Shown here: in pieces, positions 5,471 to 30,817 of the stretch
How positions within the stretch are numbered: position 1 is the first letter of the stretch
Layout: the number at the start of each line of letters is the position of its first letter
IMG/VR virus record: IMGVR_UViG_3300022468_000539
Span: 30,703-94,702 of that record
Strand: one strand, 5' to 3'
Length of the DNA: 64,000 nucleotides
Source of the DNA: a virus
Taxonomy: Duplodnaviria > Heunggongvirae > Uroviricota > Caudoviricetes
Notes under the pieces: generated by a model
Seen by the model: only the letters and a program-made list of their open reading frames with translations
Told to the model about the DNA's origin: nothing
Database searches by the model: none
Position numbers and translations under genes: made by a program

Positions 5471-5475
5471 AAAAC

Positions 5476-5486
5476 TGTGTTATAAT
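5476..5486 (+). promoter_or_regulatory. extended -10 promoter TGTGTTATAAT driving the first tRNA pair
   Basis: TGnTATAAT match 9 nt upstream of the tRNA-like gene. Confidence 0.5.
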
Positions 5487-5495
5487 TTGTCTATT

Positions 5496-5616
5496 GCGAG
5501 GGTGGCGAAATAGGTAGACGCACTGGACTTTTACAGAATATCTTCCTAAGAGGGTATTCGATAAAATCCAACGGGGAGTGATCCTCATACGGGTTCGATC
5601 CCCGTCCCTCGTACCA
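5496..5616 (+). tRNA. tRNA-like gene, 121 nt: type-II (Leu/Ser-like) D-arm, perfect T-arm and acceptor stem, but a ~30-nt extra hairpin at the anticodon loop (intron?)
   Basis: Acceptor GCGAGGG/CCCTCGT with ACCA. D-arm TGGCGAAATAGGTAGACGC. T-arm ACGGG-TTCGATC-CCCGT. Insert hairpin AGAATATC..GGTATTCG. Anticodon-stem halves CTGGA / TCCAA are separated by the insert. Confidence 0.45.
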
Positions 5617-5618
5617 GT

Positions 5619-5692
5619 GGCGCACTGTCAGATTGGTTATGTACGGGATTGCAAATCCTGATAGATCGGTTCGATTCCGGTGTGCGCCTCCA
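5619..5692 (+). tRNA. tRNA-Cys (GCA)
   Basis: Acceptor GGCGCAC/GTGCGCC; anticodon loop TTGCAAA; GGTTATGTA D-loop as in E. coli tRNA-Cys; CCA encoded. Confidence 0.75.
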
Positions 5693-7789: not shown

Positions 7790-7904
7790 AGTTTGTAACC
7801 CTAAACGTCTAAGTAACCGAGACATGACGTTGAATTGCAAGAGAACTGCTGGCAAAGTCGATAAATTCCTTCTCAGGATGTGCAGTTAGCAAAGGGTTCA
7901 TTTA

Positions 7905-8029
7905 TTTTGTTGTGAAGGGGAATTGGTATACCCTACTGGTTGGATAATAGTGGGAAAGCGGTGTTTATCACCTTAAAGTAGCCCTCCTGTAAGCCGGTGC
8001 TTGTTTAGGTTCGAATCCTATCAACAAAA
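7905..8029 (+). ncRNA. 125-nt tRNA-like structured RNA (acceptor TTTTGTT/AACAAAA, T-arm TTCGAAT, extra hairpins)
   Basis: Acceptor complementarity and T-loop at 8010-8016; internal hairpins GGTG-TTTAT-CACC and AAGC-CGGT-GCTT. Confidence 0.3.
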
Positions 8030-11773: not shown

Positions 11774-12044
11774 ATAACATTTCAACGTCCTAGGTGAACA
11801 GTCTAAGATGACCTTTCGAGCAGAGAGAATCAAAACATCTGCAACTTTGCTTAAAAAGTACAAATTAAATCTGGAACTTCAAAATTCAAAGATCAAAGTT
11901 TATGCTTCAAAGTTTAAGTTTTAAGTTTTAGAATATCATGTTTTAAAATTGAAAGTTAAAAGGTCTTCAAATCCTGATCAACGGTTTTATGGTGCTGGAG
12001 TCGCACCTAGATTGTACCGCAGGCTGCTTAGTGGGGTTGAAATT

Positions 12045-12129
12045 GGGAGAGTGGCGGAATAGGTAGACGCGCCGGTTTAAGAAGCCGGTACCGTAAGGTG
12101 TGCAGGTTCGATTCCTGTCTCTCCCACCA
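12045..12129 (+). tRNA. tRNA-Leu, type II (anticodon loop TTAAGAA; AAG or TAA reading ambiguous)
   Basis: GGGAGAG acceptor; GCG-GAATAGGTAGA-CGC D-arm as in E. coli tRNA-Leu; long variable arm; CCA encoded. Confidence 0.65.
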
Positions 12130-12136
12130 AATTTAT

Positions 12137-12207
12137 GCGGGTAAGCTAGAGGTTAGTCGCCAGCCTTCCAAGCTGTGCAGAGTGGAGTTCGATTCTCCCT
12201 ACCCGCT
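12137..12207 (+). tRNA. tRNA-Gly (TCC)
   Basis: Acceptor GCGGGTA/TACCCGC; anticodon loop CTTCCAA; T-loop TTCGATT; no encoded CCA. Confidence 0.6.
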
Positions 12208-12251
12208 CATGATTATAATAATCAGACATCGAAAATACAAAAGAGGTAATT

Positions 12252-12383
12252 ATGGCAAACCATGGATTCAAATTATGTGGTAATTTTCCATACAAATTTA
12301 TGGCATATTCACCATCCGACCCTTCCAAAATGGGATTGGGTTTCACTGATATGTTATCTGCTCAGAGACACTGTAACAAATGA
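12252..12383 (+). CDS. small hypothetical protein (43 aa)
   Basis: Follows the cassette at 12215 (TGATTATAAT..CATCGAAAATACAAAAGAGGTAATT). Confidence 0.2.
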   Translation: MANHGFKLCGNFPYKFMAYSPSDPSKMGLGFTDMLSAQRHCNK

Positions 12384-12594
12384 ACAGTCTTATTGAAACT
12401 GAGCCGGAAATATTTGATGTGCAGCATTGGGGTACTGATAAACCAGAAAAGTGGATTGCAGAACAATTACCGTGAATAAGAGTTCGCATAGCACGATATG
12501 GTGATTATGCGAAAAGTTCCTCAAAAATTCATGTAGAACTGGCAAAATCTATGTTATAATTCATTCATCAAAAACACAAACGAGGTAACGAATT

Positions 12595-12966
12595 ATGGCC
12601 TACATGTCTCAACAACAAAAAGCTGCTATGTCTCCCGCTATCAAGGCTGTGCTGAAGAAGTACAATATGAAGGGTACTATTGCAGTTCAACATAAGTCTA
12701 CTCTTGTTGTGAATATCAAATCCGGTAAACTAGATGTGATGGGTGAAACAACAGGTTGCCAAGGTCGCAAATATATTAGCATCAACCCTTACTACCTGAA
12801 AAATAATCATCAAGGTGACACATACTTCTTTTTGAAAGAGTTGATTGCTGTTATGAATGATGGTAACTACGACAACAGTGATGTCCAGACAGACTATTTT
12901 GACACTGGTTGGTATGTTTCTGTTAACATCGGCTCTTGGGACAAACCTTACACTGTGGTGGCTTGA
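12595..12966 (+). CDS. hypothetical protein
   Basis: Follows the cassette at 12550; 123 aa. Confidence 0.45.
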   Translation: MAYMSQQQKAAMSPAIKAVLKKYNMKGTIAVQHKSTLVVNIKSGKLDVMGETTGCQGRKYISINPYYLKNNHQGDTYFFLKELIAVMNDGNYDNSDVQTDYFDTGWYVSVNIGSWDKPYTVVA

Positions 12967-12968
12967 TC

Positions 12969-13139
12969 ATGGCAAATCAGTACAAATCCAAAACAGAAGC
13001 TGAACTGAGGTTCATCATCAAAGATGCTGGTGAAGCAGCTAAGTGTATGCGGGATATCAATCCTGCTGCAGAAGCAAAATATCTTGATCAGGTGAATGAC
13101 GCCTGTAGTGAACTTTATCGTAGAAAGAACAAGAAATGA
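12969..13139 (+). CDS. hypothetical protein
   Basis: ATG 2 nt after the previous stop; the ORF-track start at 12936 overlaps upstream. Confidence 0.3.
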   Translation: MANQYKSKTEAELRFIIKDAGEAAKCMRDINPAAEAKYLDQVNDACSELYRRKNKK

Positions 13140-13459
13140 TTAGTGCAAAAGAAGCCAAAGAACTATACGACAACTCTGGTGCTGAAGTTGAGGATTTTCT
13201 GGCAAAAACTGTCGAGCCTGCGGTTATTAAAGCAGCCAGGGGTGGTAAGCGACAAGCCACTATTCATATTGGTTGTCAACGTGCCAGTATGCCTTATGAA
13301 ATAAAGTCACTGGATAGTAATGTTCTCGCTAAATTGCGAAATCTTGGATATACTGCTGGAATTCAATGGATTGATGAAGAATATGTACCAAGAGGTCTGC
13401 AAGATGATAACGGTAAAGGTACACTCCATCGTAACTATGGCTATCTCATTAAGTGGTAA
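13136..13459 (+). CDS. hypothetical protein
   Basis: 107-aa ORF. Confidence 0.4.
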   Translation: MISAKEAKELYDNSGAEVEDFLAKTVEPAVIKAARGGKRQATIHIGCQRASMPYEIKSLDSNVLAKLRNLGYTAGIQWIDEEYVPRGLQDDNGKGTLHRNYGYLIKW

Positions 13460-13461
13460 TT

Positions 13462-13932
13462 ATGAAAGTTTTTAAATCTCCCCAAGATACAAGTAACGTA
13501 AAAGATAGTGATTTTTCTATCTTTTTGGCAGGCTCTATTGAAATGGGCGTTGCTGAAGACTGGCAGACTCGACTCACTACCGCAATAGCTCTAGGTGGTA
13601 TTGAAATTACCATTTTTAATCCTCGTCGCGATGATTGGGATTCGTCATGGGTTCAAAGTATTCATGACAAGCAGTTTAATCAGCAAGTGACATGGGAAAT
13701 TGATCATTTGCTACAATCATCATTTATCGTTTTTTACTTTGATCCAAACACTAAATCACCTATCACTTTAATGGAGTTAGGATTGATAGCAGGCCAGTGT
13801 CGGGATGCTGTTGTTTGTTGTCCAGACGGTTTTTGGCGCAAAGGTAACGTGGAAATGATTTGTGACCGTTTCAATATTCCTATGGTTGAAAGTTTGGAAG
13901 AGCTTATTCAGTATGTGAAGCAAATTGTATGA
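13462..13932 (+). CDS. nucleoside 2-deoxyribosyltransferase-like protein (SLOG superfamily)
   Basis: FLAGSIEMG...DW and SPITLMELGLIAG motifs typical of the Nuc_deoxyri_tr2/DUF4406 family. Confidence 0.45.
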   Translation: MKVFKSPQDTSNVKDSDFSIFLAGSIEMGVAEDWQTRLTTAIALGGIEITIFNPRRDDWDSSWVQSIHDKQFNQQVTWEIDHLLQSSFIVFYFDPNTKSPITLMELGLIAGQCRDAVVCCPDGFWRKGNVEMICDRFNIPMVESLEELIQYVKQIV

Positions 13933-14720
13933 AATTTGTAATTCAACACAACCTTATCAATAAGCAATCACTCGAAAAGATTAGGAAGGCCACAGAGCAT
14001 CTTCCTGTTGTTTGGGTAGGTGCTATACCATTCTCTGAAGAAATCGCTTCTAACGATGAACTGGAGGGTCTGGAGTACATTCCTTATGGCTCGAACCTTC
14101 TGGCGCGTGTAGCAGCTAAAAGAGGCTGGAAAGGTCTACATCATGATCTTACAAAGCTGAACTATCGCAACTTTGTTGAACATCGTGCCGATATGCTGAA
14201 TTGTAATGTCATGTCTGCGGAGAGAGTTGTTGACTTTTTGGAAGTTGTCAATGGAATTCCATGGCCCAAAGAATATTTCATTCGGCCTAGTCTAGATGAC
14301 AAGCAATTCTCCGGTACAGTCATGGAACCGAAAGAAATCATTGAGTGGTTTAAATCGATGATGGAGAGTGGGCCGGGCAGCTACTACATGTCTCCAGAGA
14401 CAGATATTGTTATTGCTCTACCAAAGAAAATTCAAGCCGAGTGGCGATGGTTCATTGTTGGTGGTAAGATTATTTCTGGCTCCATGTATCGTGCCCATGA
14501 TCAGATGCAGTTGAAACAAGAAACCGACATCGAAGTCATTAAAGAAGCGCAAGCACTTGCAGACGTTTGGTTGCCATGCGATTGTGTCGTGATGGATACA
14601 GCCTTAGTTGATGACAAGGTTTATGTGTTGGAGTTTAACAACATTAACTCCAGTGGTTTTTATGAACACGATATTGGCGCGGTTTTTAACGCACTGTACG
14701 GATATCATACTAAACTGTGA
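13929..14720 (+). CDS. ATP-grasp domain protein (phage DUF4343-like)
   Basis: C-terminal RWFIVGGKIISGSMYR...VLEFNNINSSGF resembles the ATP-grasp fold. Confidence 0.45.
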   Translation: MKFVIQHNLINKQSLEKIRKATEHLPVVWVGAIPFSEEIASNDELEGLEYIPYGSNLLARVAAKRGWKGLHHDLTKLNYRNFVEHRADMLNCNVMSAERVVDFLEVVNGIPWPKEYFIRPSLDDKQFSGTVMEPKEIIEWFKSMMESGPGSYYMSPETDIVIALPKKIQAEWRWFIVGGKIISGSMYRAHDQMQLKQETDIEVIKEAQALADVWLPCDCVVMDTALVDDKVYVLEFNNINSSGFYEHDIGAVFNALYGYHTKL

Positions 14721-14773
14721 TACAATAATAGTTCGAAATCGAAAGGACAACATGACATTTGAAGTGACACCAT

Positions 14774-14941
14774 ATGGATAACTCAAAAAAAGTACCCATG
14801 AAACCAGAATTCGAAAAATTCTGGAAAGAAGCCCATAAATCGGGAGGCATTATTCATACTTTTGAGTTGAATAAGTTTGCTGAATTGGTTTGGGAAGCTG
14901 GATTTAAAGCTGGTGCAAAAGAAAAAAATAATAATGGCTAA
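14774..14941 (+). CDS. small hypothetical protein (55 aa)
   Basis: Downstream of the cassette-like promoter at 14716 (TGTGATACAAT). Confidence 0.25.
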   Translation: MDNSKKVPMKPEFEKFWKEAHKSGGIIHTFELNKFAELVWEAGFKAGAKEKNNNG

Positions 14942-14958
14942 AGCAATACGAATGGAGT

Positions 14959-15387
14959 TTGAAAATGAGTAAAGAAGTAGAAAAATTGACCCCTATGCAA
15001 GAAGAGTTGTTGAGTCGCGCAGATAGCATTTTTGCTACTATGAAAGAAGCTGCTATGGCAGCTAAAGACTTTGCGATGGATCAATTGCCTGATATTGTTC
15101 ATCAGTTGATCGTGTTCGAGCGTGTCTACTTGACATGTATTGTATTAGCTCCAATTATTTTATTGCCACTATTCATCGCACTGTGGTTTAAAACAACAAA
15201 AATAGATGCTTACGAAAATGATGGTATTATAATTTTATTTGGTGCAGGTACCATAATGCTTGGTGTATCATCGTTTTTGGCATTTATATCTATGTTAGCC
15301 AATTTTAAATCGTTTCTGATGGTTTGGTTTGCTCCTAAGATTTATCTGATCCAGTATTTGACTGAACTGTTGAAGAAAGCGACTTGA
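14959..15387 (+). CDS. hypothetical membrane protein
   Basis: Three hydrophobic segments. Confidence 0.45.
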   Translation: MKMSKEVEKLTPMQEELLSRADSIFATMKEAAMAAKDFAMDQLPDIVHQLIVFERVYLTCIVLAPIILLPLFIALWFKTTKIDAYENDGIIILFGAGTIMLGVSSFLAFISMLANFKSFLMVWFAPKIYLIQYLTELLKKAT

Positions 15388-15578
15388 TATGACATTGCGT
15401 AAATTACGGAAACTTCGAAGCAATCGTGCTGGATGGAACCACTTTTTTATGCAGTCATGTCAATTTTTAAGCGTCTTCGGTGTGGATGATAAACAAAAAT
15501 ATCCCATTTTGACAGTCGGGTGGCGAGAATTGAAAGACTTGTGATATAATACAGCTATCGAAAACAAAAGGTAAAATT

Positions 15579-15728
15579 ATGGCAAATTTAAAAATTGTTA
15601 AGACTTATGTAACAAACAGCAAAGGCACTATGAAAGTTGCTTGGAACGTGGTTGAAAATGATGGTTTTGTTGTGGAAACATTCAGTCTGAAGCGCGATGC
15701 AGCAAAGTGGCTGAAAAATACAAAGTGA
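15579..15728 (+). CDS. small hypothetical protein (49 aa)
   Basis: Follows the cassette at 15539 (TTGTGATATAAT ACAGCTATCGAAAACAAAAGGTAAAATT). Confidence 0.3.
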   Translation: MANLKIVKTYVTNSKGTMKVAWNVVENDGFVVETFSLKRDAAKWLKNTK

Positions 15729-15736
15729 GTCAAACA

Positions 15737-15904
15737 TGAAATACGATGGAACATTTGAAGATTTTGTCAATGAAGCACTCCGCGCTGCGTTTGATGGTTT
15801 GATCACCGGTGGAACAAAGGGTATGAAAACTGTCATCTACCAGTATATCAATATCGCTGTCCAACTTGGTCGTGACGGTTCTCAGTTCAAGACTCGGGAT
15901 TGAG
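15737..15904 (+). CDS. small hypothetical protein (55 aa)
   Basis: ATG 8 nt after the previous stop. Confidence 0.3.
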
Positions 15905-16085
15905 TATGAAAGCTATATATGGAATTTTGAATGCTATTTTTAGTATAATTTTAATAGCTGCTTTCTATACATTTACATTTTTCTGTTATGTATTGGAAGA
16001 AACAAAACGTACATACTATACTGTTTTTGGGATTCCCTATTACACATTCAATGATAAAATGCATAATTACTACAAAAGAAAATGA
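15900..16085 (+). CDS. small hydrophobic protein
   Basis: 61-aa ORF with one TM-like segment. Confidence 0.3.
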   Translation: MSMKAIYGILNAIFSIILIAAFYTFTFFCYVLEETKRTYYTVFGIPYYTFNDKMHNYYKRK

Positions 16086-16117
16086 TATTTGTATGAAATC
16101 CGTGCTATAATAGCACA

Positions 16118-16600
16118 ACAGCAATTAATGATCGAGTTGATTGCTGATAAGTTCTTTAGAAATTACTGTTGGAGGTAGGCTTAGAAGTAGCCATTCTGAT
16201 ACAAGAAAGGTATTACCGAATTAAGTTAGGGTAAGGTTTCTCAAGGTCAGACGCAAGTTAGATGATTCTCATATGAGGATTCTCGTAGTCAACAAGGTAA
16301 GGAAAACTGACTGACTTGTGCCTTTAAAGAGTCGAACAATAGCATGATTGTGACATCTACAATTCTTAGAAGGGCATCAATAAGAATTGGAATTCAAAAG
16401 TGTTTCTGGTGAATATGGGGAAGATCGGAAACATCAGCAAATCAACTTTCGCGGGTTGATGAAGCAATGGGGTAGCGCCCCTGAGAATTGTTGCACATGG
16501 GCCACTTGGTTAAGTACAGAGGCACCCCAGAAATGGTAAGGCTGAAGTTTCGTTTGGTGTAGAAACGCACAACAGTAATTTCTAAAGAATTTCAAAAACT
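16118..16600 (+). ncRNA. candidate large structured non-coding RNA (~480 nt, ORF-free) between two extended -10 promoters
   Basis: Promoter CGTGCTATAAT at 16103-16111. No ORF longer than 22 aa on either strand. 20-bp terminal inverted repeat 16152-16171/16570-16589. Direct repeat GCACAACAGnAATT at both ends. Internal hairpins such as GGGGTAGCGCCCC. Confidence 0.4.
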
Positions 16601-16616
16601 GTGTTATAATAGCTAT

Positions 16617-16859
16617 ATGAAAATTTTTGAAGTACCAAAAAACGAAGCAGAAATCAAGCGTGGCTTGATTCTTATTGGAATTGAAGGTTCAGAGTTTGAA
16701 GTGGAATCGGTTACAAAACTGATTTCAAAATCATATCCTAGTACAAATTGTTCTGATGTGGGTGATAAAGAAGGTTATGTAATTGAATATTTTTGCATAA
16801 ACCGTTCTGATAAGTCTCATTTTGTTAATCTTTACAAAACAGCAAAATCTGGTTTATAA
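16617..16859 (+). CDS. hypothetical protein (likely leaderless mRNA)
   Basis: ATG only 5 nt after the -10 TATAAT of CTGTGTTATAAT (16602-16612). Confidence 0.4.
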   Translation: MKIFEVPKNEAEIKRGLILIGIEGSEFEVESVTKLISKSYPSTNCSDVGDKEGYVIEYFCINRSDKSHFVNLYKTAKSGL

Positions 16860-16935
16860 TAAGGTGAATATATGCAATTCTTATGAAAAGAGGAAGATAG
16901 TTTGACCGAAGCATTTAACAAAGGAACCTACTGAA

Positions 16936-17184
16936 ATGGAAAATTTCTATACAGTTTGGATTGTCGCCAGTGTCATCACTTTTGTTTTGTACATTTTTGA
17001 TTATCGTCATCGTAGTAGCGTCACGGTAGGTGAAGTTTTTGCGCATATTCTTTTAACAGTGTTGCCGACATCCATCCTCGTTGTTGTGATTGTGGCTGTC
17101 GTCTATGTTTGGGAATCGGCACTCGGTGGGTTTTCAAGAATTAGTGATATTCTTGATCGTGAAATAAAATTGAAGGGTAAATAA
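16936..17184 (+). CDS. small membrane protein
   Basis: Two hydrophobic helices; 82 aa. Confidence 0.4.
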   Translation: MENFYTVWIVASVITFVLYIFDYRHRSSVTVGEVFAHILLTVLPTSILVVVIVAVVYVWESALGGFSRISDILDREIKLKGK

Positions 17185-17223
17185 ATGACACGCTGTTAAA
17201 AGTGTGTTATAATTGAGAGATAC

Positions 17224-17309
17224 GGACAGGTGGGTGAGTGGTTAAAACCAGCAGACTGTAAATTTGCCGCCTAACGGCTACGTAGGTTCGAATCCTACCC
17301 TGTCCACCA
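17224..17309 (+). tRNA. tRNA-Tyr (GTA)
   Basis: Type II; acceptor GGACAGG/CCTGTCC; anticodon loop CTGTAAA; CCA encoded; promoter GTGTGTTATAAT 8 nt upstream. Confidence 0.8.
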
Positions 17310-17360
17310 AAAAGTTTAAGGAGTATAAAATGAACGAAGGTTCAGGATACGCATAAATAG

Positions 17361-17388
17361 TTGACACTCTATAAAAGTGTGATAGAAT
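17361..17388 (+). promoter_or_regulatory. full sigma70-type promoter: TTGACA, 16-nt spacer, TGtGATAGAAT
   Basis: Consensus -35 plus extended -10, about 20 nt upstream of the tRNA at 17409. Confidence 0.55.
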
Positions 17389-17408
17389 TAAGTTTTAGAG
17401 TATTGTGT

Positions 17409-17494
17409 CTGGGATTAGCTCAGTCTGGTCAGAGCACCTGATTTGGATTCAGGAGGCGAAGTCGTATACGTAGGTTCGAATCCTACATCCCAGA
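17409..17494 (+). tRNA. tRNA with Pro anticodon (TGG) but a type-II long variable arm (unusual)
   Basis: Acceptor CTGGGAT/ATCCCAG; D-arm GCTC-AGTCTGGTCA-GAGC; anticodon stem CCTGA/TCAGG; loop TTTGGAT; 16-nt variable hairpin; no CCA. Confidence 0.55.
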
Positions 17495-17594
17495 CACAAT
17501 ACTTTGAAGCGATTTCGGAATGAAATACTGAGTTCGAAATCTAACGGTTGTAAGTGACGATGAAAAACGGAACTTCCATTTTAAAGTTCTTTGT

Positions 17595-17671
17595 CAGTGT
17601 GTAGCTCAGTCTGGTAGAGTACCCTCACTGTTCAAGAGGGTTGTCGCTGGTTCGAATCCATGCCGCACTGA
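17595..17671 (+). tRNA. aberrant tRNA-Asn-like gene (9-nt anticodon loop ACTGTTCAA, bulged T-stem)
   Basis: Acceptor CAGTGTG/CGCACTG; canonical D-arm; anticodon stem CCCTC/GAGGG with loop ACTGTTCAA (compare Asn CUGUUAA). Confidence 0.4.
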
Positions 17672-17823
17672 CAAAGAATTTTATAGACATACGGTGGAAC
17701 CTGATACGTCATCCGAAGATCATTGAATCATTAGGCGTCCTGCGGCATCGAAAGTACCCCGCATCAACATGAATTAAGTTTTATGCTCTGTTATAATGCA
17801 GGTTTTCTATAAAATTTTGAAAT

Positions 17824-17900
17824 AGAGCGGTAGTTTAATTGGCAAAATTCAGAACTCCAAATTCTTGAGACTCTAGGTTCGAATCCTAGTCGCTCTGCCA
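17824..17900 (+). tRNA. tRNA-Trp (CCA)
   Basis: Acceptor AGAGCGG/TCGCTCT; anticodon loop CTCCAAA; T-arm CTAGG-TTCGAAT-CCTAG; discriminator G + CCA; promoter CTGTTATAAT upstream. Confidence 0.7.
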
Positions 17901-17909
17901 ATGGTTTAT

Positions 17910-18004
17910 ATGTCGGTAGCTTAAAGAGGTGCGCAACTAAATCCTCAACGTCAGAGCGCCTATTCGCGATAGGAGGTGGGGTTAGATTCCTTCCCGGCAT
18001 GCCA
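17910..18004 (+). tRNA. 95-nt tRNA-like gene of uncertain identity (long extra arm CCTAT-TCGCG-ATAGG, discriminator G + CCA)
   Basis: Acceptor ATGTCGG/CCGGCAT with one G.T pair; T-loop TTAGATT; contains TCA in the candidate anticodon region. The fold was not resolved. Confidence 0.3.
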
Positions 18005-18083
18005 TATTGTTAGTTTTATCGGTGAGTGAAAAGTTGGGAGAGATTGTGTATACCATAAATATATGTATAGTTGAGGTATACAC

Positions 18084-18473
18084 ATGGAAAAAACTTACGA
18101 ATGTCTACACTGTAGTAAAATTTGCATTATGCATCGGGCAAAGGTTAACAAATATTGTTCAAACCAATGTCAAAAAGATTATGAATTCTATAAGTCAGTG
18201 GAATCTGGGACAGCATCGCATAGAGTTATAAAACGGTATTTGATTGAAAAGAATGGATCAAAATGTTTTGAATGCGGGATCAGTGATTGGAATGGTTTAT
18301 CTTTGGTAATGGAGTTGGAGCATATTGATGGCAATTCTGAAAACAATAGTTTAGCCAATGTTAAACTATTGTGTCCAAATTGTCATTCCCAGACGCCAAC
18401 ATATAAGGCTAAAAATGTTGGAAATGGAAGGCATTCGCGTCGAATTCGATATCAAAGTGGAAAAAGTTATTAG
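18084..18473 (+). CDS. HNH homing endonuclease
   Basis: ELEHIDGNSENNSLANVKLLCPNCHSQT (H-N-H with a Zn-binding CxxC pair); N-terminal CxxC..CxxC. Embedded in the tRNA array; the stop abuts the next tRNA. Confidence 0.6.
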   Translation: MEKTYECLHCSKICIMHRAKVNKYCSNQCQKDYEFYKSVESGTASHRVIKRYLIEKNGSKCFECGISDWNGLSLVMELEHIDGNSENNSLANVKLLCPNCHSQTPTYKAKNVGNGRHSRRIRYQSGKSY

Positions 18474-18561
18474 CTGGATTGTCTGAGTGGTTGAAAGAAA
18501 CGGTTTTGTAAGCCGTTGGGTTAACTCCCCATCGCAGGTTCGAATCCTGTGTCCAGCACCA
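18473..18561 (+). tRNA. type-II tRNA (Ser-like TCT-GAGTGGTTGAA-AGA D-arm); anticodon loop TTTGTAA, read as TGT or GTA (ambiguous)
   Basis: Acceptor GCTGGAT/GTCCAGC; long variable arm; T-arm GCAGG-TTCGAAT-CCTGT; CCA encoded. Confidence 0.55.
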
Positions 18562-18638
18562 GTTAGCGTGATAGACCACGCACCAACGTTAGAAGTAACG
18601 TTAATGACTTCAATCAAGTGCGAATCTTGTTAAAATTT

Positions 18639-18714
18639 GGGTCTTTAGCTCAGTTGGGAGAGCCGTGCCCTTGTAGGGCGAAGGTCGGCAGTTCAAGTCT
18701 GTCAAGACCCACCA
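18639..18714 (+). tRNA. tRNA-Thr (TGT)
   Basis: Acceptor GGGTCTT/AAGACCC; anticodon loop CTTGTAG; T-loop TTCAAGT; CCA encoded. Confidence 0.7.
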
Positions 18715-18939
18715 AATTGTGGTATAATGTAGGTATACTAAGTTGCTTGTGATTAGTAGAGTAGATGAAAACCGAGCCAGAGCGCAAAGAACTGGTCTTC
18801 AATCATTAGATTGACGTTTACGGAAGGAAGTCGGTTCAGTAGGGAGTCGAAAGCAAGCAATAGCGGAAAGAGTTGGTTGGACGACAAAAGTTATGAGTTT
18901 GTTCCTCAAATAACGCCGTGTATTCGTTCATAGATTATT

Positions 18940-19014
18940 GGGTTGTTAGTGTAATGGTTAGCACCAGAGATTGTGATTCTCTTAGTTCAAGTTCAAATCT
19001 TGAACAACCCTCCA
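18940..19014 (+). tRNA. tRNA-His (GTG)
   Basis: Acceptor GGGTTGT/ACAACCC; anticodon loop TTGTGAT; T-arm TCAAG-TTCAAAT-CTTGA; CCA encoded; no G-1. Confidence 0.65.
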
Positions 19015-19285
19015 AAGTTGTGGTATAATTGCTTTATCAAAGGATAAATAATTATGTCAGCCTTATCACCTGATAGAAAATAGACACCGAATTATGTGGT
19101 TAGCGTAGTTCTATAGATGTCTGGGGTAAGAATCCTAAGTTAACCACGAATTAATCGATCTGATCAGTCGAAAAGTAAGTAGTAGGGTGTCATGTTACAG
19201 CGGCGCTCTTTGCAGTGATATACTGCGTCAGTCTGAGGAAGATTGAGAAACACTGTGGTAAAAACCCAAACGTAGCTGTAACCTA

Positions 19286-19362
19286 TGCCCCGTTGGACTT
19301 CTGGTTGAGGTCATCACCCTTTCAAGGTGAGCAGGCTCGGTTCGAATCCGGCACGGGGTACC
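19286..19362 (+). tRNA. tRNA-Glu (TTC)
   Basis: Acceptor GCCCCGT/ACGGGGT; anticodon stem TCACC/GGTGA; loop CTTTCAA; CCA encoded; T-stem with a one-nt bulge. Confidence 0.6.
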
Positions 19363-19374
19363 AAGTTTTATTTG

Positions 19375-19453
19375 TTGCGGATTAGAGAAGCCCGATCTAT
19401 CTCACTTGGCTCATAACCAAGAGGTCACTGGTTCAAATCCAGTATCCGCTACC
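19375..19453 (+). tRNA. tRNA-Met/Ile2 (CAT) with a 1:72 T.T mismatch
   Basis: Anticodon stem CTTGG/CCAAG; loop CTCATAA; D-stem GAGA/TCTC; T-arm ACTGG-TTCAAAT-CCAGT; CCA encoded. Confidence 0.65.
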
Positions 19454-19464
19454 AATAAAATTTA

Positions 19465-19544
19465 TTCCACAGAACCCGAGCGTGGTGCATGGGCCGGACT
19501 GTTAATCCGTGGTTAGCTGGGATCGTCACCCAGATGTGGAGCCA
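19465..19544 (+). tRNA. tRNA-Asn (GTT)
   Basis: Anticodon stem-loop CGGA-CTGTTAA-TCCG, identical to the bacterial Asn loop; T-arm CTGGG-ATCGTCA-CCCAG; discriminator G + CCA. Confidence 0.6.
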
Positions 19545-19563
19545 TATTTGAAAGAAAAATATT

Positions 19564-19740
19564 ATGAGTGCAAAACTGATTGGTGAAGATATTCCAAAGA
19601 GCATTGGTAAATACAATATCGCATCTGAGCGAATTCGTACTATGATTCCATTTTTTGCGACCTTTGATGGTGAAAAATGGGTTGATATTCCATCTTTTTT
19701 CCTAAATGAAGGTGGTAAACTCTATTTCTTTGAAGATTGA
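19564..19740 (+). CDS. small hypothetical protein (58 aa)
   Basis: ATG with RBS GAAAGAAAAA; sits between tRNAs. Confidence 0.3.
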   Translation: MSAKLIGEDIPKSIGKYNIASERIRTMIPFFATFDGEKWVDIPSFFLNEGGKLYFFED

Positions 19741-19749
19741 TATATCGGG

Positions 19750-19825
19750 GGGGGTGTAGCTCAGTTGGGAGAGCGGTTGCTTTGCAAGCAATAGGTCGCA
19801 GGTTCGATTCCTGTCACTTCCACCA
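19750..19825 (+). tRNA. tRNA-Ala (TGC)
   Basis: G-run acceptor GGGGGTG/CACTTCC; anticodon loop TTTGCAA; T-loop TTCGATT; CCA encoded. Confidence 0.75.
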
Positions 19826-19958
19826 TATTTGAAGGCCAAATTCTCCTGGTGAGTATTAAAAGGCGTTGCGGCACTCGGAAGAGGCGTTAAACATCGAAGC
19901 GCAAACTAATAGGGTTGTGTCCCTGCCTGCCTTCAAATTATTATTATGAAAGTGAACT

Positions 19959-20102
19959 ATGAAACTTGTTGATATCTTCTTGGTGGATGGTATTCGAGTC
20001 TACGGCTATACACTTGAAGGTCACTCTGGTATTTGGCGTTCCATGACTTACTACCCTGAAACATGGCACATCCCAATGATCAAAGATATCTGGTTCGACT
20101 GA
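19959..20102 (+). CDS. small ORF (47 aa), translationally coupled (TGAcATG) to the AlkB-like fragments
   Basis: Stop-start arrangement; possible N-terminal remnant of the dioxygenase. Confidence 0.25.
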   Translation: MKLVDIFLVDGIRVYGYTLEGHSGIWRSMTYYPETWHIPMIKDIWFD

Positions 20103-20103
20103 C

Positions 20104-20298
20104 ATGACACATCTTCCAATCCAATACATTCCATGTGCCATAGATTACCCTACACAGGCTTTCAAACGGCTTTGGAATGAACTGCAGTGGGATCGTCGTG
20201 GTTCAACTCCACGTAGAGAATACTACTGCAACGATGTCAACGTGTCCCTTACACCTATGGCTCTGGCTCTGGTATCAGAACATATGAACCAAGGCTAA
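20104..20298 (+). CDS. AlkB-like 2OG-Fe(II) dioxygenase, N-terminal fragment
   Basis: LPIQYIP...LWNELQW...PRREYYCNDVNVS matches the N-terminal half of the AlkB (2OG-FeII_Oxy_2) fold; ends TAATG into the next frame. Confidence 0.4.
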   Translation: MTHLPIQYIPCAIDYPTQAFKRLWNELQWDRRGSTPRREYYCNDVNVSLTPMALALVSEHMNQG

Positions 20299-20654
20299 TG
20301 CATCCTGTCATAGCTCAGATCAAATCTGATTGTGAGTTAATCATGAACACAAAATTTGAAGTAGTGTTTTTGAATGGATACGAGAATTCACGTGATCATC
20401 TTGGATGGCATGCTGATGACTCCCCAGAAATGGATGATACCAGACCCATTTGCATTGTTTCTCTTGGTGCAGAGCGTGAGATTTGGTTCAGGCCACAGAA
20501 CGACAAAGACGAAGTGACTAAACTTGTGTTGCAGCATGGAAGCCTTTGTGTGATGGAAGCTGGTATGCAGGATACACACTATCACCGAATTCCCAAAGCC
20601 AGCTTTGAATGTGGGCCTAGAATCAGCATTACACTGCGCGGATACACTGAATAA
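20298..20654 (+). CDS. AlkB-like 2OG-Fe(II) dioxygenase, catalytic C-terminal fragment
   Basis: HxD (GWHADDS), distal H (HYHRIP) and RxS (RISITLR) motifs all present. Confidence 0.55.
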   Translation: MHPVIAQIKSDCELIMNTKFEVVFLNGYENSRDHLGWHADDSPEMDDTRPICIVSLGAEREIWFRPQNDKDEVTKLVLQHGSLCVMEAGMQDTHYHRIPKASFECGPRISITLRGYTE

Positions 20655-20656
20655 TA

Positions 20657-20946
20657 TGCCAGAGCAATACAATACATTTCCAAAATTCCCTGCTATGTCA
20701 CGTGCTTTAGCTGATGTACGTCTTATGTTTGGGCTTACCGACTATCCTATTAGATTTACCAAAGAAGAGCTTGAAATCGCTTCTAGGTTTGATGCTGCTT
20801 TAGAATTACGTAAAGTAATGGAACGTAGAAAAGCTATGAGGGAAGAGCAACAGCTTAATGAATTTGATGTGTCTGAATTCATAGAACAGCAAAAACAACT
20901 ATCTGAATACAATAAAAATAATCCAGATAATCCCGCAAAGTTCTAA
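20657..20946 (+). CDS. hypothetical protein
   Basis: ATG 2 nt after the AlkB stop. The ORF-track start at 20605 overlaps upstream. Confidence 0.35.
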
Positions 20947-20950
20947 ATCT

Positions 20951-20992
20951 TGTGGTATAATTCATTTATCTAAATTCAAAAGGAAATTCAAA
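20951..20992 (+). promoter_or_regulatory. early promoter-leader cassette (TGTGGTATAAT TCATTTATCTAAATTCAAAAGGAAATTCAAA)
   Basis: Cassette family. Confidence 0.5.
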
Positions 20993-21412
20993 ATGAACAC
21001 CACATACGCTATTGCATATGTTTCGAATGGAAATACCTATCATAATTGGAGTGGTCAAATTCAAGACTCTTTTGTGACCAAAACCTACGGATCGCAGCGT
21101 TTTGAGAGTGAAAGCGAAGCAGAGTTTTATATGGAAAAACTCTTCCGCGATTACCATGCAATTAAAAAAACAGAGCAAGAATTGTTTAGTGTTGATAAGA
21201 AACACTCAAATTTTCTTCGCTCTGAGAAAAAGGTTTCGCCTTACTGTGATGAAGTGATCCGCCTTCATGATGAAGTTGAAACGAAAAAACAAGATTTTCA
21301 ACTGGAATATGGAATTCGATTCCAAGATTTGGATTTTCATACGTCAGAAAATCACTTTCAAATCCATAAGCAGTATAACTATGACCCAGACGCATACAAG
21401 GGGTATCCATGA
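20993..21412 (+). CDS. hypothetical protein
   Basis: 139-aa ORF. Confidence 0.4.
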   Translation: MNTTYAIAYVSNGNTYHNWSGQIQDSFVTKTYGSQRFESESEAEFYMEKLFRDYHAIKKTEQELFSVDKKHSNFLRSEKKVSPYCDEVIRLHDEVETKKQDFQLEYGIRFQDLDFHTSENHFQIHKQYNYDPDAYKGYP

Positions 21413-21705
21413 TCACCATTGCTGAAGATAACCACATCCCCTTACTGCATAAGTTATCGATAACCGAAACTAAAAACGCCTTGAAATGGGGTTCTTTAGT
21501 TGATATCGAAGAATTCAAGCGGCAAGTTAATTCAGGGTTAGTCTCATATGACGAATCTGCGTTATGGGCATGCGAACACGAAACCAGAATCTACACTGGT
21601 GAAATGGTTGAATGGGAACTCAGCGAGAACGACAAAGACGAAGAAATTGTTTTACTTTTGAATAAACCCGAGTGGGCCACTATGGTTTACTGGTACGGCA
21701 AGTAA
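21409..21705 (+). CDS. hypothetical protein
   Basis: 98-aa ORF. Confidence 0.4.
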   Translation: MITIAEDNHIPLLHKLSITETKNALKWGSLVDIEEFKRQVNSGLVSYDESALWACEHETRIYTGEMVEWELSENDKDEEIVLLLNKPEWATMVYWYGK

Positions 21706-21723
21706 TGTGCTATAATTCCATTC

Positions 21724-22776
21724 ATGAAAACATCTATCTCTCAACTCAAAACATATTTGGTCGGCGGCGCAGTTCGCGATATCTACATGGGAGAAATCCC
21801 AAAGGATCGTGACTACGTTGTGCTTGGTTCCTCTCCAGAAGAAATGCTTTCTCTGGGCTTCGAACAAGTCGGTGCTGACTTCCCTGTGTTTCTACATCCA
21901 GAGACAAAGGAAGAGTATGCTTTGGCTCGTCGTGAGCGCAAGGTTGGTTCTGGTTACCTTGGTTTTGAGTGTGAGTTTGGTGCTGATGTTACACTTGAAG
22001 AAGACCTGAACCGTCGCGATTTCACTTGCAACTCCATGGCAATGGATTTGGAAACAAACGAAATCTTTGACCCGTTTGATGGTCGCCACGACATCGACAG
22101 AGACACTCTCCGTATTACCTCTCCTGCCTTCAAAGAAGACCCTCTGCGCGTCTTGCGCATGGCACGTTTTGCTGCGCGTTATGATTGGCATATTTCGTCT
22201 GAGTCTGTTGGTATTGCACGAGAAGTTGTACTCTCCGGTGCATTGAATGAACTGCCTGCAGAGCGTTTCTGGAAAGAGATTGAAAAGTCTTTTGATGACG
22301 AATCATTGCGTGATTTTTTTGTTAACTTGGATTACCTTCTGGTTATGAATTTTTCCGAGTTTTTTAAGAATGCACTACCAAAGTGGGCTGTTTATAAATC
22401 ACATTTTGATGATCTTGAAAATGTGGAGTGGCTTTCTGCTCTGCTGTCGAATGAAAATACAACAATCTGGCTATCTGCACGTGCCAAACGCATTGCTAAG
22501 GCTTTGATGCTGGTTACACCGAGGAATGCAGAAACAATGTATAGTTACCTACTTGGATGTGATGCATTCCGCATGAGCAGTATCTTGCGCGATGTTGTAA
22601 GTATCAAAAAAACAGTATATTTTAATACATCAACACAAATCACCATTGGTGCATGTAACCTGTGCAAGACAGTCACTGCAACCGACTTCCCAAATCTGGA
22701 AGGAAAAGCGCTTGGTGATGCTATCAAAGACAAACGCATGCAATTGATCGCATGTCTCTATAACGATTTATTTTAA
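21724..22776 (+). CDS. tRNA nucleotidyltransferase (CCA-adding enzyme), class II
   Basis: N-terminal head YLVGGAVRDIYMG...DRDYVV (GGxVRD..DxD), ERRF..NSMA, and an HD-less short body. Promoter TGTGCTATAAT is 7 nt before the ATG. Confidence 0.65.
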   Translation: MKTSISQLKTYLVGGAVRDIYMGEIPKDRDYVVLGSSPEEMLSLGFEQVGADFPVFLHPETKEEYALARRERKVGSGYLGFECEFGADVTLEEDLNRRDFTCNSMAMDLETNEIFDPFDGRHDIDRDTLRITSPAFKEDPLRVLRMARFAARYDWHISSESVGIAREVVLSGALNELPAERFWKEIEKSFDDESLRDFFVNLDYLLVMNFSEFFKNALPKWAVYKSHFDDLENVEWLSALLSNENTTIWLSARAKRIAKALMLVTPRNAETMYSYLLGCDAFRMSSILRDVVSIKKTVYFNTSTQITIGACNLCKTVTATDFPNLEGKALGDAIKDKRMQLIACLYNDLF

Positions 22777-30694: not shown

Positions 30695-30817
30695 GCTGAT
30701 AGTTCCTTGTAAACTGTTAGAGGTCTTGGGTATTGGCGTACCGCGAAGACCATTTTTGTTGACTGTAGCGATTAGAGGGCTACAATATTATTTATTGTTT
30801 ACGGAATGTCTACTCTG

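Follow-up and report, generated by a model that had tools for sequence, protein, structure and literature searches.

A predicted phage RNA with a core that replicates the GTPase-associated centre of 23S ribosomal RNA

Positions 16149–16592 (+ strand) of a 64,000-nt stretch of tailed-virus DNA (Caudoviricetes; positions 30,703 to 94,702 of IMG/VR record IMGVR_UViG_3300022468_000539; the whole stretch is called the window below) encode a structured non-coding RNA (ncRNA) of ~444 nt, the predicted core of which replicates the GTPase-associated centre (GAC; helices 42–44) of 23S ribosomal RNA (rRNA). As far as sequence can tell, the identity of the RNA as a decorated GAC mimic is secure, and from it we infer the function. 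On balance, we lean slightly towards the view that phages of many lineages carry, among their tRNA genes, a free-standing and often richly decorated replica of the GAC. Acting in trans, it would capture ribosomal protein uL11 or some other molecule that binds the GAC, be it a translation factor, RelA-related machinery or a toxin directed at rRNA, and so reprogram host translation or the stringent response, or disarm immune systems that target the ribosome. The source phage is a distant relative of T4, with a gp43-like DNA polymerase 41% identical to the homologues of cyanophages. The original prediction for this locus, a large structured ncRNA next to a tRNA array, did not see that the core copies the GAC.

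The lead to this identity was a sensitive blastn search in which 60 nt (window 16512–16573) matched Pseudomonas phage pf16 and Aeromonas phage 4_4572; the matching DNA is unannotated and lies between tRNA genes or beside them. A second motif common to the two phages and the window, GGnnGGCUUAGAAGYAGCCAU, was one that we took to be helix 43 (H43) of 23S rRNA, and blastn against the Escherichia coli 23S gene rrlH then confirmed it. Window positions 16171–16215 align with nt 1055–1098 of this gene at 76% identity over H43 and the junction, the similarity being limited to these nucleotides, and the pf16 and Aeromonas copies are 93–94% identical to nt 1055/1059–1088 (E = 1e-6 and 3e-8). One relative reached a sub-threshold score of 31.4 bits against Rfam LSU_rRNA_bacteria (model positions 1084–1153). 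The core is a replica of the L11/thiostrepton site (nt 1055–1104 in the E. coli numbering used throughout), and comprises an H43 hairpin bearing A1067 in its loop, the UUUAAAGAGU junction and a helix 44 (H44) hairpin bearing A1095 in its loop. In the window, an H43 hairpin with a 7-nt UAGAAGC-type loop, a GGC/GCC stem and the internal U.U and N.A oppositions is found at 16172–16194 plus 16321–16323, and a hairpin with the GUAAUA-type hexaloop of H44, closed by the pairs equivalent to G1091–C1100 and C1092–G1099, at 16557–16566. The triple 1072/(1092:1099) is represented by U1072 (16188) and U1092–A1099 (16558/16565).

The phage RNAs thus have the same order of elements as the E. coli GAC (58 nt, 1051–1108), i.e. 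a closing helix, H43 with the UUAGAAGC loop, the UUUAAAGAGU junction and H44 with the GUAAUA loop, and they keep the non-canonical U1060/U1078 and N1061/A1077, the covariation of the triple and the nucleotides contacted by the C-terminal domain (CTD) of L11. They differ from it in that each is a predicted stand-alone transcript and not part of a 23S rRNA, in that every H44 is broken after U1090, where a helix or domain with a trailing UUUG is inserted, and in the replacement of U1101 by A. In addition, the closing helix is of free sequence and lacks kink-turn 42 (Kt-42), and A1067 is not invariant, being present in 93% of members. A simple three-way junction of helices 42, 43 and 44 with an uninterrupted H44 was found in no member, and the window copy is further interrupted by an accessory domain termed D1. 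A true 23S gene or fragment was rejected as the source of these sequences, since a contiguous H44 (GAGUGCGUAAUAGCUCAC) follows the junction in none of the 117 H43-plus-junction sites of viral loci. Paenibacillus phage Pd_22F (locus L290), which had been considered as a Gram-positive member, proved to carry a genuine 23S fragment and was removed; at ~83.4–84.1 kb of its record (MZ092003.1) at least 580 nt of genuine 23S sequence are present, including the GAC, a contiguous H44 and downstream domain II, and this stretch is probably no phage gene but DNA of the host or an artefact of assembly.

Relatives were gathered by exact-match motif patterns in viral contigs (three scans, one of which gave one new locus), genomes and metagenomes, and more than 200 distinct ones were recovered in viral, metagenomic and metagenome-assembled genome (MAG) contigs. 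A scan with the 3′ motif returned 14 viral loci, 11 of which (12 after manual inspection of locus L011) carry the H43 motif 100–340 nt upstream. The H43-plus-junction pattern retrieved 115 viral contig stretches, not one of which continues into a true 23S H44. All 89 distinct elements have the sequence UUUGG(C/U)GUAAYA(G/A)CACAC, i.e. the H44-like hairpin with its A1095 loop, 22–350 nt downstream (350 nt in the window). When the H44-like motif was searched for in 185,579 species genomes, it matched only 44 times, and 29 of the 44 matches have the H43 motif upstream, most of them on tRNA-dense MAG contigs. The metagenome scan yielded at least 120 further loci and, pooled with the viral and genome loci, at least 115 distinct window-type elements. 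Nine cultured carriers were verified, namely phages pf16, Aeromonas 4_4572, Cronobacter GAP32, Acinetobacter ME3, Ralstonia RSP15, Xanthomonas XacN1, Vibrio 2.275.O, Serratia BF and Pseudomonas UNO-G1W1; their database records leave the element unannotated.

Throughout the family the order is the closing helix (P1), H43, the UUUAAAGAGU junction, a 3–4-bp helix closing a variable domain (D2), the UUUG linker, H44 and the 3′ strand of P1. The accessory domains leave from the base of the fold, D1 at 1078/1079 and D2 at 1090/1091. D2 can be as small as a 22-nt hairpin or exceed 300 nt, at least a hairpin always being present at 1090/1091, and whole elements range from ~95–100 nt (e.g. loci L033 and L075) to ~440 nt, with the window copy among the largest. 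The latter shows the covarying P1, the insert-closing helix after GAGU, the UUUGG(Y)GUA..(R)CACAC sequence and the co-stranded tRNA array of the family. Because the helix at 1090/1091, the UUUG linker and A1101 are derived traits common to all members and absent from rRNA, the family appears to have a single origin rather than to result from repeated capture of host rRNA.

The fold is supported by extensive covariation. Among 66 non-redundant cores, the window included (inserts were trimmed and replaced by a linker in the alignment), 92.7% of cells are paired versus 64.6% in shuffles, and both-sided changes occur in 18 of 21 pairs. The covariation score is 0.724, compared with 0.183 for shuffled alignments (0/500 reach the observed value) and 0.13–0.16 when the partners are slid by 1–3 columns. 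Separate counts on 84 sequences agree with this result. The first nine pairs of P1 are 88% paired and include all pair types, the pairs of H43 are 99% paired (1058:1080 is GC in 36, AU in 21, UA in 21 and CG in 6), and the insert-closing helix is 90% paired and covaries. The U.U opposition at 1060/1078 is kept in 75/84 and A1077 is invariant. In the H44 loop G1093 is present in 83/84, U1094 in 82/84, A1095 in 80/84 and A1098 in 84/84 sequences, while the pair 1092:1099 is C-G in 65 and U-A in 19. Position 1072 follows this pair: C occurs with C-G in 65 sequences and U with U-A in 18, including the window, with one exception among the 84 (Fisher p = 2e-17). Members of the U class are unrelated in the variable columns and have several insert types.

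The contact 1072/(1092:1099) is said to be the base triple that joins the two hairpins of the GAC in rRNA (reportedly by Conn, Gutell and Draper in 1998, and in crystal structures of 1999). Base triples staple the GAC hairpins together, and binding of L11 needs only the folded GAC RNA (PMC6239185). The nucleotides contacted by the L11-CTD are 1058–1060, 1062–1065, 1075–1083 and 1088 (PMC1802607), and all of these are either invariant in the family or covary as pairs. Column-free scans found A1095 kept in the same 80/84, G1071 in 143/143 and A1067 in 133/143, the H43-loop set of 143 being still located by fuzzy match with up to three substitutions.

The locus stands out within the window by its lack of coding potential. 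At 531 nt, 16086–16616 is the longest stretch in the 64-kb window without an open reading frame (ORF) of at least 60 aa on either strand or a tRNA gene, the runner-up measuring 296 nt. The original prediction had stated that 16118–16600 holds no ORF longer than 22 aa, and the longest ORF starting with ATG is indeed of 22 aa (16344–16412). With GTG and TTG starts allowed, ORFs of 50 aa (+, 16387–16539) and 53 aa (−, 16434–16595) appear, both with TTG starts. Their lengths are at the level of shuffled sequences (50 aa in the window element versus a shuffled mean of 50.9; a median of 56 aa versus 53 aa for 37 large relatives) and the frames are not conserved; we therefore see no coding signal, and this ORF-length comparison revealed no conserved frame in the relatives. 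The predicted folding energy of 16149–16592 is −130.5 kcal/mol (z = −4.66 against dinucleotide shuffles, 0/100 of which fold as well), and the GC content is 0.38–0.445 inside the element versus 0.245–0.35 in its immediate flanks. The terminal inverted repeat described earlier as 20 bp is slightly longer, i.e. 23 nt with 22/23 (96%) complementary (16149–16171 and 16570–16592), and the proposal of a large structured ncRNA closed by this helix is borne out by the covariation in more than 200 relatives together with the lack of a coding signal. The compensatory changes come from family-level relatives; a megablast search with 12000–22000 for close relatives gave only tRNA matches and no syntenic locus.

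It is hardly credible, then, that the region is a non-functional remnant, be it a captured host rRNA fragment, a spacer or processing signal, or a coding region with a non-ATG start. Real 23S fragments do occur in phage records, as in Pd_22F, and the region holds the 50–53-aa ORFs with TTG starts, but their lengths and lack of conservation speak against coding, and the derived characters common to all members argue for a single origin. Massive compensatory changes and a covarying triple, spread over very different phages, stand against any remnant, and this covariation rules out both a dead rRNA fragment and a coding region.

The RNA matches no known class. The Rfam 15 covariance models were run with cmscan, as had been suggested with the original prediction, over the whole window at gathering thresholds, over 15900–16900 at E≤10 and over eleven relatives at E≤1. 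The first search returned tRNAs only, the second only three chance-level matches to snoRNA and miRNA families, and the third only tRNA, tmRNA and the one sub-threshold LSU fragment. Membership in GOLLD, ROOL or HEARO or among introns, which had been raised as a possibility, was consequently dropped, there being no match even at E≤10, whereas the alternative of a new class fits, the RNA forming a family of its own with covariation. OLE, raiA, RNase P and tmRNA were likewise rejected for want of a covariance-model match, and group I and group II introns because no Rfam model matches and the element does not lie within a gene. An autoregulatory leader of a ribosomal protein gene was rejected as well: the neighbouring ORFs upstream (61 aa, ending at 16085) and downstream (80 aa, 16617–16859) have no Pfam match, and no ribosomal protein gene is conserved near the members. 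The stable RNAs encoded by T4 rnaC and rnaD are not members either, since they contain no GAC motif and T4 is not matched by the family consensus.

Some of these systems are nevertheless the closest parallels. GOLLD and ROOL are large ornate RNAs of unknown function that are often found near phage or prophage tRNA genes; they resemble the present RNA in size, multi-domain build and location, and differ in having no rRNA-replica core. The leaders of ribosomal protein mRNAs (L10, L1, L20, S8) are likewise RNAs that imitate the rRNA site of a protein off the ribosome and likely capture the free protein. They are, however, cis-acting 5′ untranslated regions of cellular operons and usually partial mimics, whereas the phage element is a whole domain including its tertiary contacts, placed among tRNA genes; an L11-binding leader of GAC type is absent from Rfam 15. 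The species 1 and species 2 RNAs of T4 (rnaC, rnaD) are also small stable RNAs of unknown function, co-oriented in the T4 tRNA cluster, and differ by their lack of a GAC-like motif. Phage nucleic-acid decoys, such as RNA anti-CRISPRs that mimic CRISPR repeats and tRNA arrays that substitute for host tRNAs under attack or evade the attack, share the principle that a phage RNA lures a protein away by imitating an RNA of the host or of its immunity; here the imitated molecule is an rRNA domain and the decoy role is proposed from its likeness. The features that define the family are found in none of these parallels. No earlier description of the family was found in Rfam 15 or in full-text literature searched also with the motif sequence, subscription-only literature lying beyond that search, and a family of GAC mimics in phage tRNA arrays apparently has not been described so far.

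Might the RNA be a trans-acting piece of rRNA, incorporated into host ribosomes or docking on them as happens with fragmented rRNAs? The element is autonomous and closed by a stem resembling helix 42, and GAC-containing small RNAs are at work in fragmented mitochondrial rRNAs (PMC3382252). Such a role is nonetheless very improbable, because the host 23S rRNA has its own covalently attached GAC, the P1 sequence is arbitrary and without Kt-42 or helix 42 determinants, the Rfam scan found no other rRNA fragment in the window, and D1 and D2, being large and placed at the base, would presumably clash with the body of the ribosome.

The elements are tightly associated with tRNA genes. The retrieved locus includes tRNAs for 74 of the 89 distinct viral elements, and for 49 of the 89 a tRNA lies within 100 nt, often 1–15 nt from the end of P1; all 307 tRNAs within 2 kb lie on the strand of the element. 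The same is true of the window, where, in accordance with the stated proximity to a phage tRNA array, the element is on the + strand like all 16 tRNAs and the nearest one, tRNA-Tyr, lies 632 nt downstream. Genes for tmRNA adjoin the element in several loci (L071, L089, L153). CUA-anticodon tRNAs (called 'Pyl') are found near it in loci L023, L113 and L148; the nearby tmRNAs and amber-suppressor-like tRNAs may be relevant, as L11 affects RF1-dependent termination. All-against-all clustering of 1,735 flanking ORFs revealed no protein conserved beside the element, be it L11, L10, bL12, a toxin or an ADP-ribosyltransferase; the best cluster, an HNH endonuclease, is present at 7/89 loci. As no neighbouring protein is conserved, the partner of the RNA is probably supplied by every host. 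The median length of P1 is 9 bp in the family and 23 bp in the window. None of the nine elements whose P1 reaches 17 bp or more, the window copy among them, has an adjacent tRNA, while 44 of the 80 with a shorter P1 have one (p = 0.0025); only this class differs, an overall rank test of P1 length against tRNA adjacency being not significant (p = 0.13).

This setting, with the element embedded and co-oriented in tRNA arrays and tmRNA adjoining it in several loci, would suit a platform for a translational GTPase (EF-G, the EF-Tu ternary complex, RF3 or IF2), for RelA or for the elbow of tRNA, alone or with uL11, that serves as a sink, chaperone or regulator of phage tRNAs or of the stringent response. 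A1067 and A1095, which contact factors and tRNA, are conserved, and the conserved hairpin at the end of D2, with its GNRA-like tip and its two conserved internal loops, might offer a further site for binding. We consider such a platform improbable. Isolated GAC RNA generally binds factors weakly off the ribosome, D2 has no similarity to rRNA, and AAGUACAGAGGCACC is not conserved, so that the second half of the factor site is missing. This last string of the window resembles AGUACGAGAGGACC of the sarcin-ricin loop; mimicry of that loop was rejected, and the resemblance regarded as coincidence, since the string is not conserved in relatives.

We estimate the probability at about 0.55 that the RNA acts instead as an off-ribosome decoy presenting the GAC surface, transcribed from a promoter at 16082–16111 and with uL11 as its likeliest ligand. 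Following transcription from this promoter, copies with a long P1, such as that of the window, would be released by RNase III-like cleavage in the P1 duplex, much as RNase III cleaves the long duplexes of rRNA precursors. Copies with a short P1 embedded among tRNAs would be presumably expressed from the tRNA operons and be released by tRNA-processing enzymes. The RNA would accumulate like a tRNA and act in trans, presenting the GAC surface, and titration of host uL11 would alter RelA activation, which could be blunted, RF1 termination and the stimulation of factor GTPases. We favour uL11 because isolated GAC RNA is a high-affinity site for L11, because the L11 contact nucleotides are conserved, and because the accessory domains at the base of the fold leave the L11 face and the 1067/1095 face free in most members. 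L11 is linked to the activation of RelA. It acts in EF-G GTPase and in RF1 termination (PMC1802607), and phages encode homologues of the stalk protein bL12, rarely of uL11 (PMC6375957, PMC13157829).

Several points weigh against a decoy for uL11. D1, in the window and three relatives, splits 1078/1079 inside the strand 1075–1083 contacted by the L11-CTD, and may hinder L11 binding in the window copy. A1067 and A1095 are not known to be needed for binding of the L11-CTD, and their conservation hints that the 1067/1095 cleft (factors, thiopeptides, toxins) is the selected surface. The obligatory helix at 1090/1091 and the change of U1101 to A have no counterpart in rRNA, and a free RNA might not be able to strip or out-compete ribosome-bound uL11. 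The collection itself also limits the argument: columns fixed by the search patterns (1065–1071 and 1081–1090 in one scan, parts of H44 and D2 in others) were not counted as conservation, and the sampling is biased towards canonical members, divergent ones being under-sampled.

The main rival is a pseudo-substrate or sponge for GAC-attacking toxins, defence effectors (ADP-ribosyltransferases, nucleases, methyltransferases) or thiopeptides, a decoy which would protect host ribosomes. Conservation of the exposed loops with A1067 and A1095 exceeds what the fold requires, and no phage protein partner is conserved. Tre23 ADP-ribosylates 23S nt 1095–1098 (PMC8661411), some defence effectors cleave both rRNA and tRNA (a preprint on retron-Kva2 and the HEPN-MNT systems cited there), and the tRNA arrays in which the element resides have been proposed to counter tRNA-targeting defences (PMC10264068). 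Yet no GAC-specific anti-phage system was found in the literature, a stoichiometric decoy would have to compete with 10^4–10^5 ribosomes for a catalytic enzyme, and A1067 varies in ~7% of members. We regard this explanation as possible though unlikely, and binding of factors or tRNA and incorporation into ribosomes as less likely than it.

As to the architecture of the window copy, the candidate promoter at 16082–16111 (+) is of the sigma-70 type (ATGATA-18 nt-TATAAT with a TG extension, a 10/12 consensus match), with an expected transcription start at ~16117–16120. That the locus has a promoter of its own, as had been proposed, is plausible but unproven: the upstream extended −10 site was called by the scan, but promoter-like sites are not enriched in the region (7 versus 5.0 ± 2.1 by chance) and no intrinsic terminator was found there. 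The second extended −10 described earlier, TGTGTTATAAT at 16600–16610, exists in the sequence but was not called, owing to a poor −35. It belongs to a promoter-like motif, AAAACTGTGTTATAATAGC at 16595–16613 (+), which precedes the 80-aa ORF, marks the downstream limit of the RNA locus and repeats AAA.C.GTGYTATAATAGC of the upstream promoter, and which likewise escaped the consensus scan. An extended −10 motif AAAnCnGTGYTATAAT(AGC) recurs at 5473–5487, 16096–16114, 16595–16613, 16826–16861 and 17185–17213, ahead of small ORFs, the ncRNA and the tRNA array, and is probably the early or host-type promoter family of the phage.

Ahead of P1 lies a 5′ leader hairpin, CAGCAATTAA...TTGATTGCTG (16119–16146, +), which is specific to the window and absent from relatives, and which presumably protects the 5′ end or aids folding. 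The direct repeat reported at the ends of the region is present (TATAATAGCACAACAGCAATT at 16106–16126 versus TAGAAACGCACAACAGTAATT at 16560–16580, 81%), although the coordinates given for it were 1–2 nt off. The first nucleotides of the transcript, GCACAACAGCAAUU (16113–16126), nearly repeat the H44/P1 3′ strand (16567–16580). The 5′ arm of the leader could pair with the 5′ strand of P1 (16157–16171) in place of forming the leader hairpin, which may be a co-transcriptional folding device or chance.

The 5′ strand of P1 (16149–16171, +; G1055 = 16171), the equivalent of 23S helix 42, leads into the H43-like segment (16172–16194, +; 23S nt 1056–1078) with the loop UUAGAAGU, in which A1067 corresponds to 16183, G1071 to 16187, U1072 to 16188 and U1078 to 16194. 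This segment occurs only once in the window, and no second GAC-like motif is present there. D1 (16195–16320, +) separates U1078 from C1079. A homologous insertion (AGCCAU-yGGUACAA ... CAGGGCCrAC) occupies the same place in loci L174, L186 and L201, the analysis of D1 resting on these four sequences: UGGU/GCCA of the first helix in the relatives covaries with UGAU/GUCA of the window, and, in the three pairs of the H43 base below D1, AGG/CCU of the window covaries with CAG/CUG of L186. The 3′ base of H43 (C1079–U1081) and the junction UUAAAGAGU (1082–1090) follow at 16321–16332 (+; A1088 = 16330) and fit both the 23S junction and the family consensus.

D2 occupies 16333–16552 (+) and is closed by a 4-bp helix (CGAA 16333–36 / UUCG 16549–52). 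It comprises a long-range helix (GCAUG 16342–46 / CAUG 16496–99), a hairpin with the loop GAAGGGCAUCAA (16360–16389), a hairpin with the loop UUUCGCG (16441–16460), the element GCAAU-[GGGGUAGCGCCCC]-...-UUGC (16464–16494), a hairpin at 16503–16516 and a terminal irregular hairpin (16517–16547; CAGAGGC-ACC-CCA-GAAA-UGG-UAA-GCUGAAG). At least 12 other members have a D2 of the window type, and in the alignment of 13 window-like members its helices covary. The long-range helix appears as GCAUG/CAUG, CACG/CGUG, CAAA/UUUG, CAUA/UAUG and CCUAU/AUAGG, and the hairpins keep the conserved loops GAAGGGCAUCAA and UUCGCU. Of the internal hairpins listed by the original prediction, CAGCAATTAA/TTGATTGCTG and GGGGTAGCGCCCC (16469–16481) are real, the latter being conserved in relatives; the hairpin singled out there reads GGGRUAGCNYCCC in the family. 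GTTTC..GAAAC probably forms no helix, as the family model places its halves in the insert-closing helix and in the H44 hairpin. Among the matches listed, 115 distinct sequences of the terminal hairpin have GC (61), UA (41), AU (9) or CG (4) as the first stem pair and conserve the two internal loops and the GNRA-like tetraloop. Neither D1 nor D2 shows similarity above noise to the E. coli 23S, 16S or 5S rRNA.

Downstream of D2 come the UUUG linker (16553–16556, +), the H44-like hairpin (GU-GUAGAA-AC at 16557–16566; G1091–C1104 = 16557–16570, +, with U1092 at 16558, A1095 at 16561, A1099 at 16565 and C1104 at 16570) and the 3′ strand of P1 (16570–16592, +). Hence the insert closed by CGAA/UUCG is followed by UUUGGUGUAGAAACGCAC at 16553–70. 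A second ornate class of D2 is found in jumbo and other large phages, i.e. ME3 (L291), RSP15 (L292), XacN1 (L293), Serratia BF (L295) and GAP32 (L041), and in loci L023, L025, L063, L085 and L098. It has the conserved sequence ...GAUCCGU...CAGGGGAAGGAC...GGGCGAAGCC...AGACCCUUAGAGCA before UUUGG and no sequence kinship to the window-type D2. The H43 loop of ME3 is CUGAAGGU, with G at position 1067.

The tRNA regions of the window have further peculiarities. A 118-nt tRNA at 5496–5613 (+), directly upstream of tRNA-Cys (5619–5692), is recognised by Rfam (41.6 bits) and not by ARAGORN; it has a normal acceptor stem, D-arm, T-arm and encoded CCA and ~45 extra nt at the anticodon/variable region, and may be intron-containing or otherwise interrupted. 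Two tRNA genes (+) are unusually long for their isoacceptors: tRNA-Pro at 17409–17495 (87 nt; the Rfam alignment shows 13 extra nt in its variable region) and, of the two tRNA-Thr, the one at 18473–18561 (89 nt). An HNH-endonuclease-like ORF (18084–18473, +; weak Pfam HNH match) lies inside the tRNA array, and a gene for an R2K-clade ATP-grasp protein (13929–14720, +) lies just upstream of the ncRNA region. Further stretches of 180–295 nt in the tRNA regions are free of tRNAs, of Rfam families and of ORFs reaching 60 aa (19455–19749, 19015–19286, 18715–18939, 12347–12594, 7790–8000 and 11864–12044); they have no second GAC-like motif but could hold other small RNAs.

If the decoy role is true, phages would steer the factor-binding centre of the ribosome with an RNA decoy, besides proteins and tRNAs, which would amount to an undescribed mode of host takeover or counter-defence. 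The RNA would then define a new class of viral RNAs for host takeover, and no stand-alone decoy of an rRNA domain would have been known from nature before. The family provides more than 200 natural variants of the textbook L11-binding tertiary fold, useful for RNA folding, for thiopeptide and L11 biology and for engineering, and gives an identity to the unannotated gaps in the tRNA regions of pf16, GAP32, XacN1, RSP15, ME3, Serratia BF and others. Several of the carrier phages and their hosts are cultured, and experiments are therefore feasible. The finding also bears on the long-standing question of what purpose the non-tRNA stable RNAs in phage tRNA clusters serve.

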